Notes: a model not told the origin generated them from the letters alone. A stretch of 25,481 bases of DNA from an uncultured Candidatus Cloacimonadota bacterium (GCA_964608295.1 CAZSOM010000001.1:1-25481); one strand, 5' to 3'. Positions 3 to 8,722 are shown, counted from the first letter of the stretch. A program made the numbers and translations.

Positions 3-626
3 GTAATTCTGGGACTTCTTATCGCAATTACTTCCATGTTCTGGGGAAGAAGATTCTGTGGATACGTGTGTCCATTTGGTACAGCTCAGGAAATGATCTT
101 CAATTTAAATCCAAACTATAAAAAGAAAAAGCCGCTCAATCTTCCGGTTTGGCTGTACAGATTTCTTAATGTCTTAAAATATGTGATCATGCTCATCACC
201 ATTATAGCTGTTTTCCGTTCCGCCCAGTATGTTTACATGAAGTTTTGTCCGGTGCTGGCAGTATCTCATCCGCAGAATATCACACTTTATTCTTTAGCCA
301 CGTTGTTTGTGATCTTCATTATTGGATTCTTTATAAACAGATTCTGGTGCAGGTATTTATGCCCTTATGCTGCTTTGATGAATGTATTTCAATATATTGG
401 GAAATTACTACATATCAAAACCAGCAAAATTCATGTCAGTGAGGATCATTGTTTAGATTGCCGGTTATGTACAAAAGCCTGTCCAATGCAGATCGTGATC
501 CATGAAGTTAAACGGGTGGAAGATGTGAATTGCATTTTTTGTTTGAAATGCCAACAGAGCTGTCCGGTTGAGAATTGTATAGTTCTTGATACAATTAAAT
601 TGAAGAACAAGAAGAAATTGGATTAA
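3..626 (+). CDS. Membrane-bound 4Fe-4S-binding polyferredoxin (NapH/MauN/CcoG-like), 5'-truncated by the window edge
   Basis: The frame is open from base 3 (VILGLLIAITSM...), so ATG 36 is probably internal. It has two CxxxCP motifs (GRRFCGYVCPFG, RFWCRYLCPYA) between hydrophobic helices and a C-terminal 2x[4Fe-4S] domain (CLDCRLCTKACP, CIFCLKCQQSCP). Confidence 0.88.
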   Translation, partial: VILGLLIAITSMFWGRRFCGYVCPFGTAQEMIFNLNPNYKKKKPLNLPVWLYRFLNVLKYVIMLITIIAVFRSAQYVYMKFCPVLAVSHPQNITLYSLATLFVIFIIGFFINRFWCRYLCPYAALMNVFQYIGKLLHIKTSKIHVSEDHCLDCRLCTKACPMQIVIHEVKRVEDVNCIFCLKCQQSCPVENCIVLDTIKLKNKKKLD

Positions 627-666: not shown

Positions 667-1197
667 ATGAATAAAAGATTAATGATCTTGATCGCAATTT
701 TAAGTATAATTGCTTTCAATGTATACGCGCAGACAGAAGAGAAAATTGAATTAACTAAATATTCCGGTAAACTGAAACAGATAGCCGGAAGTTGGTTTTT
801 GAATACAGGCGAAGATGTGATAGAACTATCACTTGCACCCGATGAATTTCTGAAAGAGAATGAACTCGAACTTACTTCAAAAATGGAATTAATCTTGAAT
901 GGAATAATGCAGGAAGAGCAGCTGGTGGTTCATTCTATCATAATTGAAGAAACTGAACTCAAACTAAGAGATGAAGCAGGTGCACAGTTGTGGCAGATCA
1001 AACCATATTATGTGGAAGCTGATAAATGTATTGGTTGCCGGATGTGTGTTTCGCCTTGTCCTCAAGGTGCAATAACAATGGTAAAAGGTGTTGCTGTGAT
1101 CGATGCTGATAAATGTGATGGTGATGGTATTTGTGCGAATGGTGATGGCAAAAGATACAAAGGCTGTCCGGTAAATGCTATTAAACAAACTGAATAA
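667..1197 (+). CDS. Secreted protein with an N-terminal beta-rich (OB-fold-like) domain and a C-terminal ferredoxin domain
   Basis: GGAG at 657-660 favours ATG 667 over 655. Sec-type signal MNKRLMILIAILSIIAFNVYA|Q, followed by CIGCRMCVSPCP and an atypical CDGDGIC-x10-CP. Confidence 0.8.
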   Translation: MNKRLMILIAILSIIAFNVYAQTEEKIELTKYSGKLKQIAGSWFLNTGEDVIELSLAPDEFLKENELELTSKMELILNGIMQEEQLVVHSIIIEETELKLRDEAGAQLWQIKPYYVEADKCIGCRMCVSPCPQGAITMVKGVAVIDADKCDGDGICANGDGKRYKGCPVNAIKQTE

Positions 1198-1224
1198 ATT
1201 ATTATAAATTAGATTTGGGAAAAA

Positions 1225-3021
1225 ATGAATAAATTATTTTTATTACTTTTGCTCATCGGACTTTTTGTTATCAGTTGTACCGATACTCTTGATAAAACAA
1301 CTAATCTTAACAGCAATCCCCGTATTGAATATTCTTCCTGTACCAGTTGTTATGAATGTGTTGATCTTTTCAACTGTCCCGAGAATGCGATCAAGTTGGA
1401 TAATCGAACACAAACCATGTACATTGATGCAGATCTCTGCACGGGATGTATGGATTGTATCAATCTGTTTTCCTGCCCGGATGATGCGTTTACAATTGAT
1501 GTAGACAATATAAAACCTGCTCAGATCAATGATGTCATTGCAGCATCAGACTCAATTGGGAAGATGAATATTCAATTTACTGCAACAGGTGATGATTCAA
1601 CTACAGGTAGAGCTTTCAAGTATGAACTGGTGCTTAAAGATTCTAATAATCAGATCATTGAGAATGATTTTATCACACCTTTACCGCAAAATGCCGGCGC
1701 AATTGAGAATTGGGATTTGGAGAATTTACCGGAAGACGAACTGGTGACTCTGGAGATTGAAGCATTCGATGAACTTGATCAAGTTTCTCTTCCAGCAATA
1801 CAAGAAGTACAGATCTTGGGTGAGATAATTGATGAAGAACCTCCCTGCTCAATTGATGATATAGCAGTCAGCTCTATGTCTATGAATTCGTTCCAGGTAA
1901 ATTGGACTGCACCCGGAGATGATGGTGATCTTGGAATTTCAAGCTATTATATTGTTAAAGTTCACACAGAAAATATTAATGATTCAAATTGGGAAATAAT
2001 AGAGGAATATGAGCAGAATATAGTTCCTCAAGAAGCAGGAAATGAAGAAGTTATAATCATCGTAAATCTTGATCCGGTTACGGAATATTTTGTCGGGATT
2101 AAAGCAGTTGATGAAGTTGAAAATATCTCTCAGCTTTCTAATATAGCACAAGCGGCAACAACAGCTATTCCAGACGAAACTTCTCCTTCTGCAATTACGG
2201 ATCTGCAGGCTGATCCTACTGACGAGTTGATCGAACTAACATGGACTGCAACTGGTGATGATGGAGATGAAGGAACAGCTTATAATTATGAGATCAGGAT
2301 TTCACAATCGGTAATTACATCAGGCAATTGGAGTGATGCTGAACTTCTGGAAGGTGCTCCCTGGCCTTTGGAATCAGGTTCATCTCAGAATTATACTGTA
2401 GAAGATCTGCAACTTGGGATCACCTATTATTTTGCGATCAAAGCATTTGATGAAAGTGATAATGTCTCTCCGCTTTCGAATGTTCCCGATGCAAGCTTAA
2501 TCAACGATATTACCGCACCGGCAGATATTACAGATCTGGTAGTTTATGAAGGTAGTACATCTAATTTAAGCACAATAAAGATCATGTGGACTGCACCGGG
2601 TGATGATGGATCGCAAGGAATTGCAAATCATTATGAGATCAGGTATTCAACTTCTTTGATCACAGCATCAAACTGGGGAAATGCCACTATCTTCAATGAT
2701 CCACCAGTACCACAAAATGCCGGAACTTCCCAATATTGTTATGTTAATGTGCTGGAAGCTGCAACGATCTACTATTTTGCCATTAAAGCTTATGATGAGA
2801 ATGGTAACGTAAATCAGGTTTCTAATTCACCGGCAGGCAAAATAGTCTTTCAGATCAATACAGGAGCATGTCGCAATTGCAGTAACTGTATTTATGATTG
2901 TAATTATGATGCCATCCTGCAGGGTCCCGGTTATAAATATATAGATCCTGATCTATGCCAGGCTTGTGGAGATTGCACCTGTCCCTGGAATTTAATCTAT
3001 AAAGCAGTTGTTGCATATTAG
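1225..3021 (+). CDS. Lipoprotein: 2x[4Fe-4S] domain, four fibronectin type III repeats, 2x[4Fe-4S] domain
   Basis: Lipobox-like VIS|C18. N-terminal CTSCYEC-x5-CP and CTGCMDC-x5-CP. Four ~110-aa repeats with (W/F)TA(P/T)GDD and (Y)xxxIxAxDE motifs. C-terminal CRNCSNCIYDC and CQACGDCTCP. Confidence 0.85.
   Translation: MNKLFLLLLLIGLFVISCTDTLDKTTNLNSNPRIEYSSCTSCYECVDLFNCPENAIKLDNRTQTMYIDADLCTGCMDCINLFSCPDDAFTIDVDNIKPAQINDVIAASDSIGKMNIQFTATGDDSTTGRAFKYELVLKDSNNQIIENDFITPLPQNAGAIENWDLENLPEDELVTLEIEAFDELDQVSLPAIQEVQILGEIIDEEPPCSIDDIAVSSMSMNSFQVNWTAPGDDGDLGISSYYIVKVHTENINDSNWEIIEEYEQNIVPQEAGNEEVIIIVNLDPVTEYFVGIKAVDEVENISQLSNIAQAATTAIPDETSPSAITDLQADPTDELIELTWTATGDDGDEGTAYNYEIRISQSVITSGNWSDAELLEGAPWPLESGSSQNYTVEDLQLGITYYFAIKAFDESDNVSPLSNVPDASLINDITAPADITDLVVYEGSTSNLSTIKIMWTAPGDDGSQGIANHYEIRYSTSLITASNWGNATIFNDPPVPQNAGTSQYCYVNVLEAATIYYFAIKAYDENGNVNQVSNSPAGKIVFQINTGACRNCSNCIYDCNYDAILQGPGYKYIDPDLCQACGDCTCPWNLIYKAVVAY
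1504..2840 (+). repeat. Four tandem FN3-like protein repeats (about 1504-1830, 1831-2172, 2173-2505, 2506-2840)
   Basis: Each repeat starts D-x-x-x-P-x-x-I-x-D and contains FTATGDDS / WTAPGDDG / WTATGDDG / WTAPGDDG and a terminal I(E/K)A(F/V/Y)DE strand. Confidence 0.85.
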
Positions 3022-3090
3022 ATAATAAAACTAATCAATCTTGTTTGAGATAATCATGATCAAAATGAATATTAAAAATATTGAGGATAA

Positions 3091-3333
3091 ATGAAAAATA
3101 AAATAATAATAGTTATAATTATCTTAGCCGCAATTTCACTTTTCGCGATCTCCAAGAGTAATATTTTCGTAGAATCAAATTCTTGTATAGGTTGTGGAGA
3201 CTGTGTTAGTGTCTGTCCTGTAAATGCAATTGAAATAATTGATGGAAAAGCTGTTATCGATGCGGAATTATGTATAGATTGTGAAATCTGTATAACAAGT
3301 TGTACTTATAAAGCAATAAGGAAAAATAAATGA
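3091..3333 (+). CDS. Small 2x[4Fe-4S] ferredoxin with an N-terminal signal peptide or membrane anchor
   Basis: GAGGA RBS. MKNKIIIVIIILAAISLFA precedes CIGCGDCVSVCP and CIDCEICITSC. Confidence 0.88.
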   Translation: MKNKIIIVIIILAAISLFAISKSNIFVESNSCIGCGDCVSVCPVNAIEIIDGKAVIDAELCIDCEICITSCTYKAIRKNK

Positions 3334-3575
3334 AAAAAATAGGAATAATATTTTTCCTAATTGTGATCTTCGTAAGTATTATTAGCTGTGAAAAAGTGAG
3401 TAATCCTGAATATAATGTAGATAAAATAGCTTGTAATGCCTGTGGAAATTGTATTAATATCTGTCCGCAGGATGCAGTTGAAATCGGTGAAGACGGCAAG
3501 GCAATAATAGATCAAACTAAATGCAATCAGTGTGGTAAATGTATTACTGTCTGCCCGGAAGATGCTATCTATTAA
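3330..3575 (+). CDS. Small 2x[4Fe-4S] ferredoxin lipoprotein
   Basis: ATGA overlap with the previous gene. Signal MKKIGIIFFLIVIFVSIIS|C, then CNACGNCINICP and CNQCGKCITVCP. Confidence 0.88.
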   Translation: MKKIGIIFFLIVIFVSIISCEKVSNPEYNVDKIACNACGNCINICPQDAVEIGEDGKAIIDQTKCNQCGKCITVCPEDAIY

Positions 3576-3587
3576 AGTGTGAATGAT

Positions 3588-4466
3588 ATGAAGAAAATTT
3601 TAATAATACTTCTAATATCAATCTCATTTTCTCAAGGATTTTCTGAGGAAAAGCAAAATAATAACTTAGAAACAAAATCTAAAAACAAGTATTATAAAAT
3701 AGCCAGGTCATTATATCAAAAACCGTTTGGATCAACCTTATGTATACCATTTATCTGGTTAGGTGATTTAGCAGAAAATAAAAGAGTTAAATCTGATCTA
3801 TCCAACGAGCAAAAATTAGAAGATCCAGATCAACGAAGAAAATTCAACTTAACAAACTGGTCACAACTTTCTCTTAAATACTTCACTACGAATGCTGAGC
3901 ATGATATTGAAATAATCACTGGAGCTTCTCAAGATGCTGATAAAATAAAGGCTCAAGGTAAGTTTGGGCTGAATTATCAACATGAGGTAACAGGTAAGAT
4001 AAGTAAGAAACTTTCTTTTAATGTGAAGGATAATTTTTTCTTCTCTGAGAAAAGTCATGAGCGACGCAATTCATTTCTCACAAATGACCTGAAGCTAGGT
4101 TTTCTATATAATCATGAAACAACTTATCTTAACTTCAAATTGAATAATCGTTATTACGATCCAGATGAAACTAATTTCTTATCATTACCAGCCCTGGGGC
4201 AACATACACAACTAAAAATGGTTTCCAGTGCTGTTGTGCATTTAAAACAGAATTTTGGAAATCTGAACCTGAATGTTTATACGAACTTTAGGGATTTGCA
4301 GTATAGATATGTTGTTCCTATAGAAGAAGAGGATGATGAATATGACGCCCACAGAGCTAGAGATTATGATAGCTATACCGATTCTAAACTTTCTTATCCA
4401 ATCATGGATCATCTGAAGATTTTCGGGAGAGTATACTATAAAGACGAACTTAGGGGGAGGATTTGA
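3588..4466 (+). CDS. N-terminal part of a probable outer-membrane beta-barrel protein (frameshift-split)
   Basis: ATG 3588 gives signal peptide MKKILIILLISISFSQGFS. Alternating amphipathic strands follow (QGKFGLNYQHEV, TNDLKLGFLYN). The ORF ends just where the +1 frame becomes barrel-like. Confidence 0.6.
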   Translation: MKKILIILLISISFSQGFSEEKQNNNLETKSKNKYYKIARSLYQKPFGSTLCIPFIWLGDLAENKRVKSDLSNEQKLEDPDQRRKFNLTNWSQLSLKYFTTNAEHDIEIITGASQDADKIKAQGKFGLNYQHEVTGKISKKLSFNVKDNFFFSEKSHERRNSFLTNDLKLGFLYNHETTYLNFKLNNRYYDPDETNFLSLPALGQHTQLKMVSSAVVHLKQNFGNLNLNVYTNFRDLQYRYVVPIEEEDDEYDAHRARDYDSYTDSKLSYPIMDHLKIFGRVYYKDELRGRI

Positions 4467-4509
4467 ATATGACAATAACATTAATCTCTTCAGTTCTCTC
4501 AAAGCAAAA

Positions 4510-4992
4510 GTGCAATACTACAAAAGAATTTCTGCTAAGATCAATAATGAACAGGATCATAACCTGATCACACAATTGCGTTATTCAAGGAGATTCCGTA
4601 ATGGGATTTCCGGTTTTGTTTCCTATATAAACCGTTCTTGTTATGATGATGAAACTTCTCAAGTTTATCGTGTTTCTAATATGCTCAGAGTTCATACGAT
4701 GTATTCCTATGCACTTGAAAACCTTAATAACTCTTATGTCTTGGTTGGAATTAAATATAACCCTGAAAATGAAGGCTCGCTTGGTTTTATTGAACAAAAT
4801 CAGTATCTGGTCAAAGATATTTATTCAACTGTTGCTATAAAATATTCAGTTGATCTTTTTACTTCATACTCAGTGAAAATGGAATATTTCCTGAATTCAT
4901 TACAATCATTTTGGATCAAAGATGAATTTGTAGATTATTATAATATTCATACTCAGAATTTAATTTTCATTGGTTCTACAATAATATTTTAA
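4510..4992 (+). CDS. C-terminal part of the same beta-barrel (frame open from 4417; GTG 4510 is probably not a true start)
   Basis: The upstream in-frame sequence reads TNLGGGFEYDNNINLFSSLKAKVQYY. Amphipathic strands continue to a terminal Phe (GSTIIF*), typical of a BAM recognition signal. Confidence 0.6.
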   Translation: MQYYKRISAKINNEQDHNLITQLRYSRRFRNGISGFVSYINRSCYDDETSQVYRVSNMLRVHTMYSYALENLNNSYVLVGIKYNPENEGSLGFIEQNQYLVKDIYSTVAIKYSVDLFTSYSVKMEYFLNSLQSFWIKDEFVDYYNIHTQNLIFIGSTIIF

Positions 4993-5004: not shown

Positions 5005-5985
5005 ATGATAAAAACATTAATTGAAGGAGCAATTCTAGGGTTAACTACAGGAACAACATGCTTGATCACCTGTTCTCCTATCTACTTGCCTTATTTGATC
5101 TCTGAAGATAGAAAATTAGGTAAAAGCCTTTTGGCTGTTTTGGAGATCTCTGCTGGAAGGTTTATTTCCTATCTTGCTTTTGGCGCTATTGCTGGATATA
5201 CCGGAGCTCAAATTGCTTCAGTTAACCGTGAGTTGTTTACTTCGATTGCCTACATTTTACTCTCAGCTTATCTTGTGCTTTCTGCAGTAAGGACCAATAA
5301 AAAAACTAAAAGTTGTCATGTACCCAAAATGGCTAAATTCACTAAAAGCGGTTTTATCCTGGGGATTCTCACCGGTATAAATTTTTGTCCTTCCTTCTTG
5401 ATTGCACTCTCTAAAGCTGTAGATCTAGGTGGTGCTCTCAGTGGTATGATGCTGTTTATGGGATTTTTCTTTGGAACATCCATCTTCCTGCTGCCACTTG
5501 CCTTTATTGGTCAAATTTCTAAAGTCAGCAAAATGAAACTAATTGCCCAATATGCTTCAATTCTTGTTGCTATCTGGTTTACATTTGCTGGAGTTAAAGG
5601 GCTTATTCATTATCAGGAACATGTTAGATTGGAAGCTCAGCCAGCAAGATTAGTGGAAGCATTTAATCCAAATATACCGTTGGCTGTTGTTGCTTCAAAA
5701 GAAAATTCCGTTTATTTTACATCATTACAAGATTCCTTGAAGAAATACACACCGCAGGACGTTCATTATTTTCAATATCATAAATCAGTACTTGATTCTT
5801 TGAATAAATTTCAAGAAATTGTCTTGGTTATAGACTCCACAATTTTAAATGAGAGTTTCGATAACTATGATTACTTCCAGGTTGAACCGGATTATAATTT
5901 ACCCAGAATGCTAAAATTTATGAAATTCTATACATTCAAAACAAGAACTCATCTGCACTGGGAATTTATTGAAAAAGAAAAATAG
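5005..5985 (+). CDS. DsbD_2 / TauE-SafE-like (CcdA-like) membrane thiol protein with a C-terminal soluble extension
   Basis: About six hydrophobic helices with intramembrane Cys motifs GTTCLITCSP and GINFCP, GR motif in TM2, and a ~120-aa hydrophilic tail. Confidence 0.72.
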   Translation: MIKTLIEGAILGLTTGTTCLITCSPIYLPYLISEDRKLGKSLLAVLEISAGRFISYLAFGAIAGYTGAQIASVNRELFTSIAYILLSAYLVLSAVRTNKKTKSCHVPKMAKFTKSGFILGILTGINFCPSFLIALSKAVDLGGALSGMMLFMGFFFGTSIFLLPLAFIGQISKVSKMKLIAQYASILVAIWFTFAGVKGLIHYQEHVRLEAQPARLVEAFNPNIPLAVVASKENSVYFTSLQDSLKKYTPQDVHYFQYHKSVLDSLNKFQEIVLVIDSTILNESFDNYDYFQVEPDYNLPRMLKFMKFYTFKTRTHLHWEFIEKEK

Positions 5986-6172: not shown

Positions 6173-6191
6173 TCTTCTCATGAGGAAAGTT

Positions 6192-7337
6192 ATGAAATTA
6201 AAATTCGTATTCTTACTAATTATGGGATTATCATTCTTAAATGCGAAACCAGTAGATAAATCTATAACGCTTGGAATTTTCTATCCCTGGTCCACAAACA
6301 AATCCAAACTGGAATCTACTAATTTTAACTTATCTCTTTTTCAAAATAGTGTAGGCAATGTTGAAGGTGCCAGCATTTCAGGATTCTCAGCAATCTGTAA
6401 TGGCAGTGTAAATGGAATTCAGGCATCACTTCTATATTCCCAGATTAATAAAGATCTACAGGGCATCTCGTTCTCCACTGTGAATGTGGTGAACCAAAGC
6501 ATTTTGGGTGTTCAAGCCGGGATTGCATTCAACCTTTTGGGAAAAAGTTTTTCCGGATATCAGGTCGTAGGAGCGATGAATTTTGTGGGTGGATATTTCA
6601 GGGGAATGCAACAGTCTGCTGTTTTTAATATTGTAGGAAGAGATTTTTACGGGCTGCAGTCAGCCGTAGTCGGGAACGTTGTAGGTGGTGGTTTTAAAGG
6701 CGCTCAGTTTGGAACAACTTTCAATTTTGTTGCACGTAAAATGTCTGGTCTCCAAACCGCAAGTTTGAATGTGTGCGCAGAGCTTAAGGGTGTTCAATTG
6801 GGCATTGGGAACATCACCCAGTTAAATCGGGGTTGGCAGATCGGATTGATGAATCTCGCGGAGCAACAAGAAGGTGTACCAATTGGACTTATTAATATTT
6901 CGGATGATGGAAATATCCGCTGGCAGAACTACATCAGTAATTTTGCTGGTTTTGTTACTGCTATCCGGTTTGAATCCAATAATTTTGTTTCCAGTTTGGA
7001 AATAGGAGCACCCAATTTAGAATCTGAAATTGAAGAATCTGTTTTGTTCGGGTTTCATTACGGTTATAGAGTTCCCTGGAAAAGATTAGGATTTGAGACC
7101 GATTTCGGTTTCTTCCATGTAATTTATGAACCCGATAATGAAGAGAGTGATATTCCCAATAGTTTTGCGCTACAACTGCGTTTTTCCTGTTCTTTACGTA
7201 TAACTGAGAATGTTTCAATTTTCGGAGGAATCGGGGGTTCCACCATGGCTGACTATCCTGATTTGGATGATGAGGACGCAGAAACAGTAACTTCGGAAGA
7301 TAGGCTACTCTATTTCTGTGGAATAAATCTATTTTGA
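6192..7337 (+). CDS. LA_2272-type surface-repeat protein (beta-solenoid) with a probable C-terminal beta-barrel
   Basis: GAGGA RBS favours ATG 6192. Signal peptide, then tandem 14-16-aa G-x-Q-x4/5-N repeats. The C-terminal amphipathic strands end CGINLF*. Confidence 0.75.
   Translation: MKLKFVFLLIMGLSFLNAKPVDKSITLGIFYPWSTNKSKLESTNFNLSLFQNSVGNVEGASISGFSAICNGSVNGIQASLLYSQINKDLQGISFSTVNVVNQSILGVQAGIAFNLLGKSFSGYQVVGAMNFVGGYFRGMQQSAVFNIVGRDFYGLQSAVVGNVVGGGFKGAQFGTTFNFVARKMSGLQTASLNVCAELKGVQLGIGNITQLNRGWQIGLMNLAEQQEGVPIGLINISDDGNIRWQNYISNFAGFVTAIRFESNNFVSSLEIGAPNLESEIEESVLFGFHYGYRVPWKRLGFETDFGFFHVIYEPDNEESDIPNSFALQLRFSCSLRITENVSIFGGIGGSTMADYPDLDDEDAETVTSEDRLLYFCGINLF
6507..6896 (+). repeat. G-x-Q-x4/5-N protein repeats (five of 16 aa, then 14-aa units)
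   Basis: GVQAGIAFNLLGKSFS / GYQVVGAMNFVGGYFR / GMQQSAVFNIVGRDFY / GLQSAVVGNVVGGGFK / GAQFGTTFNFVARKMS / GLQTASLNVCAELK / GVQLGIGNITQLNR / GWQIGLMNLAEQQE / GVPIGLIN. Confidence 0.85.
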
Positions 7338-7345
7338 GGTTACTT

Positions 7346-8722
7346 ATGATAAAATATATAATTTTCCTATTCCTTATCTCAATCAGTTTGATCCATGCTC
7401 AATCAGTTTCTACAGATTCTTTACAAACCAATTCTGCTGTAAAATGTTCGAATCCTAAGAATTTTAAACTAGCTGCCAGTGAAGCGATTGGCATAAATTT
7501 AGGGGTGTGGAGTGTTGATAACTATATTGCTAAAGCGGAATGGGCTAATATCAGTATAAAATCTGTTAAGCATAATTTGCAAAGCGGTTTTGTGTTTGAT
7601 GATAGTGACTTCTTGATGAACCAATTTCTACATCCTTATCATGGCAATCTCTACTTCAACTCTGCACGCAGTAACGGTTTCAATTTTTGGGAATCAACAC
7701 CATTCTCTCTGGCTGGAAGTTTCATGTGGGAAATGTTCATGGAGATCGAAGAACCTTCCAATAACGATTTGATAACAACAACCATGGGTGGTATCATGCT
7801 GGGTGAAATTACCTGGCGTGTTTCTTCTTTAATATTGGATGATTCCGCTACCGGATCGGAACGAACCTGGAGAGAAATTGGGGCTGGAGTTATTAATCCA
7901 ATACGCGGTATAAACAGACTATTCCAAGGTAGAACCAAAACAAAAAGTCGATTTCATAATCAGCAACGTGAAGATGTGTTGGCAGAGATTTCACTGGGTG
8001 GAAACACTGTAGGGGAAGGAATGAATATTTTTCAAGGTAAAGAATCGCCTCTTCTTAAAGCCCAGCTTGTTTATGGAACTCCTTTCAAAAATGAAAAACG
8101 TAAACCATTTGATTATTTTAATCTGCATTTAGGAATTAACCTGAAAGGTGTGGATACAATAACTAATTTCTATGGTGATGCCCTGCTTTGGGGCAGTAAT
8201 TTCAATTTTCAGGGAAACACGGGTGAGATGGCGCAAGACAATCTTTTTGGTGCTTTTCAACACTTTGATTATCTGGCAAATGATGTTTATAAGATAGCTG
8301 CCAGTGGAGTTGGGGGTGGAGTGATCTCTCGTTTTTCAGCCTACGAAGGAATGAACCTTTTCACATCCTGTCATGTTTCCGCCATCATCATGGGTGGCAG
8401 CAACTCTGTTTATGCACAACAGGCTCATCGCGATTACAATCTTGGACCAGGTTACAGTAGTAAATTTGAAGGTTGGTTGATTAACGAAAAATATGGAGAA
8501 ATGTATGTAGGTTATCTGCGTTACTGGCTTTATACTCTAAGTGGGGCAGATGGTACTGAAGCAATTGAGATTTCTAATTACCGGGTGGATACACCGATCA
8601 GTAAACACTTCAAGCTAGGTTTGGAGTATTTATATTATTTAAGAAATGGTAAATATGACAATTACAAAGATGTTGTAGCCAAAAACAACGAACTGCGAAG
8701 CTTTATTTCTTATCGATTTTAA
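7346..8722 (+). CDS. DUF3943-domain outer-membrane protein
   Basis: GAGGT RBS favours ATG 7346. Signal peptide, motif NQFLHPYHG-x-LYFNSARSNG...WEMFME-x-EEPS-x-NDLITTT-x-GG-x2-LGE, and a beta-barrel-like C-terminus ending SFISYRF*. Confidence 0.8.
   Translation: MIKYIIFLFLISISLIHAQSVSTDSLQTNSAVKCSNPKNFKLAASEAIGINLGVWSVDNYIAKAEWANISIKSVKHNLQSGFVFDDSDFLMNQFLHPYHGNLYFNSARSNGFNFWESTPFSLAGSFMWEMFMEIEEPSNNDLITTTMGGIMLGEITWRVSSLILDDSATGSERTWREIGAGVINPIRGINRLFQGRTKTKSRFHNQQREDVLAEISLGGNTVGEGMNIFQGKESPLLKAQLVYGTPFKNEKRKPFDYFNLHLGINLKGVDTITNFYGDALLWGSNFNFQGNTGEMAQDNLFGAFQHFDYLANDVYKIAASGVGGGVISRFSAYEGMNLFTSCHVSAIIMGGSNSVYAQQAHRDYNLGPGYSSKFEGWLINEKYGEMYVGYLRYWLYTLSGADGTEAIEISNYRVDTPISKHFKLGLEYLYYLRNGKYDNYKDVVAKNNELRSFISYRF

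Follow-up and report, generated by a model that had tools for sequence, protein, structure and literature searches.

How an iron-sulfur (Fe-S) protein receives its clusters when it leaves the cytoplasm unfolded is the question raised by an operon (genes A to G, Table 1) at the beginning of a 25,481-nucleotide stretch of DNA, here called the window, from an uncultured Candidatus Cloacimonadota bacterium (GCA_964608295.1 CAZSOM010000001.1:1-25481). In the textbook view, Fe-S proteins acting outside the cytoplasm are loaded with their cofactor inside and exported in the folded state by the twin-arginine translocation (Tat) system. Four consecutive genes of the operon, B, C, D and E, encode ferredoxin-like proteins with predicted signals for the general secretory (Sec) pathway, and a first-pass annotation of the sequence had proposed that the clusters of these proteins are assembled outside the cytoplasm. 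Our analysis supports that proposal: the signals are not of the Tat type and are unlikely to be anchors with an outward-facing N-terminus (N-out), the two findings named at the time as speaking against it. On balance, we favour export of the apo-proteins by Sec, followed by the acquisition of Fe-S clusters in a reducing periplasm. The literature search turned up no account of exported ferredoxins of the Sec type, nor of this operon or the assembly of Fe-S clusters in the periplasm.

Export signals and ferredoxin domains of proteins B to E

Signal classes were assigned by sequence rules (charge of the n-region, hydropathy, and cleavage site or lipobox). With a slash marking the predicted cleavage site, the N-termini are MNKRLMILIAILSIIAFNVYA/Q for B, MNKLFLLLLLIGLFVIS/C for C, MKNKIIIVIIILAAISLFA for D and MKKIGIIFFLIVIFVSIIS/C for E. 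These sequences agree exactly with those of the first-pass annotation, and all four are short, strongly hydrophobic and free of a twin arginine (RR). The peak hydropathy over 12 residues on the Kyte-Doolittle scale is 3.2-3.6 for the N-termini of the window's B, D and E. No start codon lies between the preceding in-frame stop and the start of each of the four open reading frames (ORFs), save for one that would extend B by four residues (MEIK), and therefore no RR is hidden upstream. Among orthologues of B to E in Cloacimonadota, RR occurs sporadically and is not conserved.

A six-frame scan of the 2.1-Mb source genome yielded 20 ORFs with the strict motif CxxCxxCxxxC[PGAS]. Signal-like N-termini were found only in those belonging to this operon, indicating that the pairing of signal and ferredoxin domain is not due to chance. 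The sole other hydrophobic N-terminus among the 20 is that of RnfB, in which the helix is preceded by no Lys or Arg (K/R) and followed by KK, corresponding to the N-out orientation.

The signal of B is composed of MNKR, a 14-residue hydrophobic core and the cleavage site VYA/Q. At 90% identity, the B family falls into 72 clusters; its named members are all from Cloacimonadota, and all 69 full-length members have a start resembling signal peptidase I (SPase I) substrates, e.g. MKKKWIII...NVFS/Q. In C and E, the hydrophobic core is closed by [GS]-C in 14 of 14 orthologues of each protein. A strict lipobox rule modelled on PROSITE PS51257 is passed by 12 of 14 C and 4 of 14 E orthologues, the window's own C and E passing it as well; the failures of ten of the 14 E orthologues are due to Tyr at position -3 (LIYIG/C), which we read as a relaxed lipobox. 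LspA (PF01252) is present in the source genome. D features a basic n-region and an h-region; its cleavage site is uncertain (LFA/IS), an AXA site is not obvious, and the helix is followed by a Lys. By these rules, C and E carry lipoprotein (SPase II) signals and B carries a Sec/SPase I-type signal, while D may stay in the membrane as an uncleaved anchor with its N-terminus inside (N-in) instead of being cleaved.

The earlier designation of all four products as Fe-S proteins is confirmed by Pfam domains of the Fer4 family, which score above the curated cut-offs in proteins A to E. D and E each contain two canonical CxxCxxCxxxC[PT] motifs. B contains one full motif plus Cx2[D/C]x2Cx10CP, and all seven of its Cys, like the Pro that follows each motif, do not vary among the 69 sequences of its family, down to about 30% identity. 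The ligand position 153 is occupied by Cys in 37 and by Asp in 31 of these 69 sequences. In the window's B, the second cluster motif (residues 150-156, positions 1114-1134) reads Cx2Dx2C. A swap between Cys and Asp is known at cluster-ligand positions of [4Fe-4S]/[3Fe-4S] ferredoxins (Pyrococcus, Desulfovibrio).

C matches the Pfam family fn3 with 68 bits, has three to four Fn3 repeats and also matches Fer4_6/10/7. Its cluster motifs, one at each end of the protein, show the non-canonical spacings Cx2Cx2Cx5CP and Cx2Cx2CxCP. Homologues of C with E-values below 1e-60 are found in several families of the order and range from 598 to 1720 amino acids. The length varies with the number of repeats (598, about 1050 and 1720 amino acids; L018:5367-10529 and L083:530-3691), and both terminal ferredoxin domains are retained. 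Judged from their domains and signals, B to E are true ferredoxin-type Fe-S proteins working beyond the cytoplasm, and we infer that the exported proteins hold clusters.

Distribution of Tat and the related module in Fibrobacterota

Profiles of TatC (PF00902) and TatA (PF02416) gave no match in the source genome, which is 73% complete. TatC was found in none of the 32 genomes of the window's family, most of them >90% complete, and in one of 53 and three of 150 high-quality genomes of the order and of the phylum Cloacimonadota, respectively. The same search was positive in 11 of 14 control genomes. Tat is almost wholly missing from this phylum. None of the three TatC-positive genomes (G042, G110 and G142) is among the genomes listed as positive for the outer-membrane barrel encoded by gene F. 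A loose scan of 2475 ORFs for Tat motifs returned ten matches (FabF, a resistance-nodulation-division (RND) pump, membrane proteins), none of which resembles a Tat substrate. The missing RR, cores too hydrophobic for Tat and the negative profile searches of the genome uphold the earlier statement that the four signals are not of the Tat type. The KR in the signal of B (the gene starting at 667) was considered as a variant Tat motif and rejected, since no translocase was found and the position varies within the family (KK, KR, TK, FK, SR).

Neither DsbA nor VKOR was detected in high-quality genomes of the window's family (0 of 29 for each), and exported cysteines should therefore stay reduced. 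Cytochrome c assembly proteins (PF01578; CcmC/CcmF/CcsA-type) were found in none of 26 high-quality genomes of the family, and no operon protein contains a CXXCH motif. Hence, the DsbD_2 gene (G) would not serve the maturation of cytochrome c.

The NapH-like polyferredoxin, the exported ferredoxins, the barrel of about 22 strands and the DsbD_2 protein form a conserved module. Its core, consisting of two ferredoxins, the barrel and DsbD_2, is retained even around the remotest barrel homologues, and in two phyla. The search beyond Cloacimonadota was made with an alignment of the DsbD_2 subtype and located the module in Chitinivibrionales and Chitinispirillaceae, both of which belong to Fibrobacterota. 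Of 201 Fibrobacterota genomes searched with a profile of the barrel, 11 were positive; together with one genome identified via the DsbD_2 search (G175), this amounts to 12 carriers, 11 of which possess TatC. A cultured carrier was sought among the Chitinispirillaceae, and none was found beyond the metagenome-assembled genome (MAG) used as query.

In Fibrobacterota, the gene at the position of D encodes the D signature C[ST]YxAI and clusters with D in the tree. Its product starts with the canonical Tat signal MNRR[STA][LIM][LI][KR] and a weakly hydrophobic core in seven of the 12 carriers; the starts of the Tat type include MNRRSLLKLFGALGAAMVLPVAG, MNRRSMIK..., MNRRTILRLIAGAGALIAMPVLAAKSK, MKRRLLLK... 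and RRRTILK.... A Sec-like signal is present in the other five. The peak hydropathy of the D core is 3.0-3.9 in Cloacimonadota, 2.7-2.9 in the Sec type of Fibrobacterota and 1.7-2.4 in the Tat type. Both types are interspersed in the tree (L112, L114, L116-L119, L108), suggesting that the export route was switched repeatedly.

The use of Tat implies that a protein is folded around its cofactor before export. A D orthologue on Tat therefore indicates that members of the D family are genuine Fe-S proteins of the extracytoplasmic space, for which Cloacimonadota would use Sec. We regard this contrast between predicted Tat and Sec signals in Fibrobacterota as the decisive comparative result. The E-type ferredoxin is of the lipoprotein or Sec type in almost every carrier, TatC-bearing genomes included, which argues that Sec export of ferredoxin domains is not solely a by-product of the loss of Tat. 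Nor does DsbD_2 appear to be simply a substitute for Tat, because it is retained where the D orthologue uses Tat.

Two further genes were observed 3' of the module in Fibrobacterota. One encodes a 529-amino-acid NapH-like polyferredoxin with four Fer4 motifs (L108:8044-9633), the other a membrane-anchored protein resembling, by eye, the flavin mononucleotide (FMN)-binding domain of RnfG/NosR (L107:8008-8634).

Operon layout and partner proteins

The features of the operon are listed in Table 1.

Table 1 Position and predicted products of the operon genes in the window
Feature	Position	Strand	Remarks
Operon	first 6 kb of window	+	seven co-directional, closely spaced genes A-G
A, NapH/NosR-like membrane polyferredoxin	3..626	+	5' end lost at contig end; 273 amino acids in relative L017
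B, 176-amino-acid exported ferredoxin	667..1197	+	predicted SPase I-type signal, residues 1-21; N-domain of about 90 amino acids without recognised fold; C-terminal Fer4 dicluster
C, 598-amino-acid lipoprotein	1225..3021	+	lipobox VIS/C (Cys18); Fn3 repeat stalk between two terminal ferredoxin-like domains
D, 80-amino-acid 2x[4Fe-4S] ferredoxin	3091..3333	+	signal predicted as Sec-type or else as N-in anchor; signature C[ST]YxAI[RK] at the C-terminus
E, 81-amino-acid 2x[4Fe-4S] ferredoxin lipoprotein	3330..3575	+	lipobox IIS/C (Cys20); C-terminus CPxxAIY
F, outer-membrane beta-barrel gene	3579..4992	+	split in this assembly into 3579-4466 and 4510-4992
G, DsbD_2/CcdA-like six-helix membrane protein	5005..5985	+	Pfam DsbD_2

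The source MAG is close to Ca. Tenebribacter. The closest named related locus is that of Ca. Tenebribacter burtonii, in which protein C shows 73% identity, and the related loci belong to Candidatus Cloacimonadota. The order A-B-C-D-E-F-G is complete in four relatives, and C-D-E-F-G is found in five more. Genes D and E overlap by four nucleotides (ATGA). No NCBIfam equivalog is assigned to any protein of the operon.

Protein A matches Pfam Fer4_5 with 62 bits and has a Fer4 dicluster. It reaches 74 bits against TIGR02163 (cut-off 213) and 57 bits against the NapH equivalog (cut-off 234); by these scores it is a relative of NapH, not a member. According to hydropathy and the positive-inside rule, A is predicted to be N-in with four transmembrane helices (TM), placing the CX3CP motifs and the 2x[4Fe-4S] domain in the cytoplasm. 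Both predicted periplasmic loops contain conserved Cys, in GFCPYSSIC after TM1 and in KFCP after TM3 (3-626; L017:6401-7222). A redox or metal site facing the periplasm might be built from these cysteines; we know of no description of such periplasmic-loop cysteines for NapH.

The barrel protein F is intact in the relative L017, where its 482 amino acids include a signal peptide and end in Phe. Its AlphaFold2 (AF2) model shows about 22 strands, with a mean predicted local distance difference test (pLDDT) score of 84.8 overall and about 95 over residues 88-478. The best Foldseek matches are exclusively 22-strand barrels of TonB-dependent receptors, a generic similarity, and F has no plug. The family is small (69 representatives in a collection of 1.84 billion proteins) and was found in 60 of the 150 high-quality Cloacimonadota genomes. 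The lesion in the window's F gene is a gap of 32 nucleotides near 4452 (4440-4460) and not a single-base slip. Two relatives (L017, L020) and contigs of two other sediment runs (X2, X3) have about 32 extra bases at this site, encoding ...NELSLFDQMNL.... The contig of the source run carries the gap at 5.7x depth. The gap may be a true deletion or stem from a collapse in the assembly.

Protein G matches Pfam DsbD_2 (PF13386) with 69.9 bits (cut-off 24.9). Invariant Cys are C19 and C23 (TM1, CxxxCxP), C104 (cytoplasmic loop) and C128 (TM4, NFCP). The positive-inside rule predicts six helices with both termini outside (N-out/C-out) and a Cys-free alpha/beta C-domain of about 130 amino acids facing the periplasm. 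The AF2 model has a pLDDT of 84; compared with the PDB by Foldseek it gave no match at E<=0.001, and the C-domain is weakly flavodoxin/CheY-like. Wherever a Cloacimonadota context reaches beyond the barrel gene, G lies directly 3' of that gene, and it does so in at least nine of 13 Fibrobacterota loci. It is the one conserved accessory gene of the module.

Downstream of the operon (6180-8722), two signal-peptide proteins are encoded, one with LA_2272-type surface repeats and one with DUF3943. They were considered as members of the module and rejected, as they are not syntenic in relatives; they are probably unrelated.

Proposed cluster acquisition after export, alternatives and known systems

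In the mechanism we propose, B and D would pass SecYEG unfolded as apo-proteins, to be cleaved by SPase I or, in the case of D, to remain anchored, and C and E would be lipidated via Lgt and LspA. The cysteines would be kept reduced in the periplasm of a strict anaerobe without a DsbA/VKOR oxidising system, and the [4Fe-4S] clusters would be built after export from Fe2+ and sulfide in this anoxic compartment. Clostridial-type apo-ferredoxins reconstitute chemically in vitro with Fe2+, sulfide and thiol. Assembly in the periplasm might be spontaneous, or it might be aided by the co-inherited DsbD_2 protein, which would pass reductant, or possibly iron or sulfur, over the inner membrane; such a helper role seems doubtful to us, although it is worth considering. 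The logic would be akin to that of cytochrome c, whose apo-protein is exported by Sec before its cofactor is attached in a CcdA-dependent way. A haem-free electron path could then lead from the NapH-like protein A to the barrel F, with the ferredoxins, whether soluble or anchored, and then lipoprotein C with its Fn3 stalk as intermediate carriers.

A dedicated extracytoplasmic Fe-S route, in which Sec delivers apo-ferredoxins, DsbD_2 supplies reductant (or iron/sulfur) and a haem-free, envelope-spanning ferredoxin electron conduit results, is put forward here as a tentative proposal. With the same reserve, we suggest that this route exists in Cloacimonadota and, for the lipoprotein ferredoxins, also in Tat-bearing Fibrobacterota.

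Several points weigh against the favoured reading, Sec export followed by cluster acquisition. No extracytoplasmic Fe-S scaffold is recognisable. Five TatC-bearing Fibrobacterota carriers have a Sec-like D, which shows an interchange of the two routes and not a mode of maturation after Sec export. DsbD_2 is kept in Fibrobacterota operons with a Tat-type D, and its role need not be maturation. The periplasmic domain of G lacks Cys, and its gene has no neighbour encoding a thioredoxin-like partner. Signal classes are rule-based, and D might stay uncleaved as an anchor. With an incomplete MAG and an interrupted F gene, the system could be inactive in the source genome itself. Finally, everything rests on computation, and a look for RNA runs found none listed.

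One alternative is that the Cys motifs are exported by Sec without Fe-S, and that they bind another metal (mononuclear Zn, Fe or Ni), form disulfide modules or scavenge sulfide or metal. It would accommodate the non-canonical spacings in C and the fact that the operon holds no known or recognisable factor for Fe-S assembly in the periplasm, and the holo-proteins are so far something that we infer. We nevertheless consider it unlikely, given the two canonical motifs in each of D and E, the invariance of the ligand Cys and the following Pro, the alternation of Cys and Asp at a ligand position, and the NapH-like polyferredoxin in the operon. Moreover, the D protein of Fibrobacterota uses Tat, a route known for cofactors loaded before export, and no DsbA or VKOR was found that could form disulfides. 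A further explanation, compatible with Sec export followed by cluster acquisition, concerns the DsbD_2 protein alone, which would be an inner-membrane entry point for electrons or ions (reducing equivalents or metal), with cluster insertion being purely spontaneous. This is conceivable rather than probable. DsbD_2 adjoins the barrel even where D uses Tat, and the core module occurs without an adjacent NapH-like gene in many contexts. Three of its four invariant Cys are intrahelical (CxxxC in TM1, one in TM4) versus the one-plus-one arrangement of CcdA, its periplasmic domain has no Cys, and the operon encodes no thioredoxin-like partner. However, E and the upstream ferredoxins are of the Sec or lipoprotein type in the same Fibrobacterota operons, where maturation would still be needed, and the DsbD/CcdA superfamily is known as a conduit of thiol reductant for cofactor attachment.

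Two other explanations would place cluster loading in the cytoplasm. If the N-termini were N-out anchors, as in RnfB, the ferredoxin domains would remain cytoplasmic and be matured by the ordinary machinery, an arrangement for which RnfB provides a precedent of ferredoxin domains tethered by an N-terminal helix, and with which the lack of an obvious AXA site and the Lys after the helix in D would agree. The first-pass annotation had raised this possibility, which we now regard as highly improbable: K/R precede the helix in all four proteins, the reverse of the RnfB of this genome, the lipobox Cys is conserved in C and E, in line with the presence of LspA, and the c-region of B reads VYA/Q or NVFS/Q in 69 sequences. 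It is further disfavoured by the Fn3 repeats and the outer-membrane barrel in the same operon and by a D orthologue with a Tat export signal. Alternatively, folded holo-proteins might be exported by an unrecognised route, be it a very divergent Tat system, hitch-hiking or a new translocon. TatA is small, MAGs are incomplete, and TatC does occur in three of the 150 genomes of the phylum. Yet TatC is a robust marker, detected in 11 of 14 controls versus none of the 32 family genomes, the signals are without RR and too hydrophobic for Tat, and proteins with lipobox signals are known to be Sec/Lgt/LspA substrates unless RR is present. We therefore hold this explanation to be quite improbable as well, and retain Sec export of apo-proteins with subsequent cluster acquisition as the preferred interpretation.

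Among known systems, NapGH (also MauMN and NrfCD) resembles the operon in that A, a four-helix protein carrying two CX3CP motifs and, on the cytoplasmic side, a 2x[4Fe-4S] domain, is encoded beside small ferredoxins predicted to be periplasmic. However, NapG and NrfC are Tat substrates, whereas the ferredoxins of the window are of the Sec or lipoprotein type in a phylum nearly without TatC. In addition, A falls far short of the cut-off for the NapH equivalog, and the operon encodes no nitrate or nitrite reductase but instead the Fn3-stalk lipoprotein, the outer-membrane barrel and DsbD_2. With System II of cytochrome c maturation, the operon shares apo-proteins with Sec signals and, encoded alongside them, a membrane protein of the CcdA/DsbD superfamily with conserved intramembrane Cys. 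Here, the cofactor would be Fe-S and not haem, CXXCH motifs, CcsBA/Ccm proteins and a thioredoxin-like acceptor are missing, and the role of DsbD_2 is a putative one.

The conduits MtrCAB, PioAB/MtoAB and Pcc of Geobacter share with the window the combination of a periplasmic redox protein, a redox lipoprotein and a large plugless barrel in one operon. They differ in that the window operon has neither haem proteins nor cytochrome c maturation and its redox centres would be [4Fe-4S] clusters, and in that its barrel has about 22 strands instead of 26. No sequence relation was detected between the barrels, so the similarity is one of analogy only. DmsAB of Shewanella, exported by Tat and then by the type II secretion system (T2SS), represents Fe-S proteins located beyond the inner membrane and next to an outer-membrane barrel, but these are loaded in the cytoplasm and exported by Tat, which is not available here. 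Going by its predicted gene content, the operon is a member of none of these systems.

A phylum almost without Tat keeps conserved exported ferredoxins, and a sister phylum uses Tat or Sec for the same protein. This natural experiment suggests the installation of Fe-S clusters after Sec export, and with one orthologue of the Tat type and one of the Sec type, the question lends itself to a direct test in E. coli. If true, it would constitute a third compartment-specific route of cofactor insertion, beside periplasmic haem attachment and metal loading, and would account for the periplasmic redox chains of anaerobes without Tat. It would also mean cytochrome-free electron transfer to the cell surface in fermenters abundant in digesters and sediments, with a bearing on syntrophy and interspecies electron transfer.

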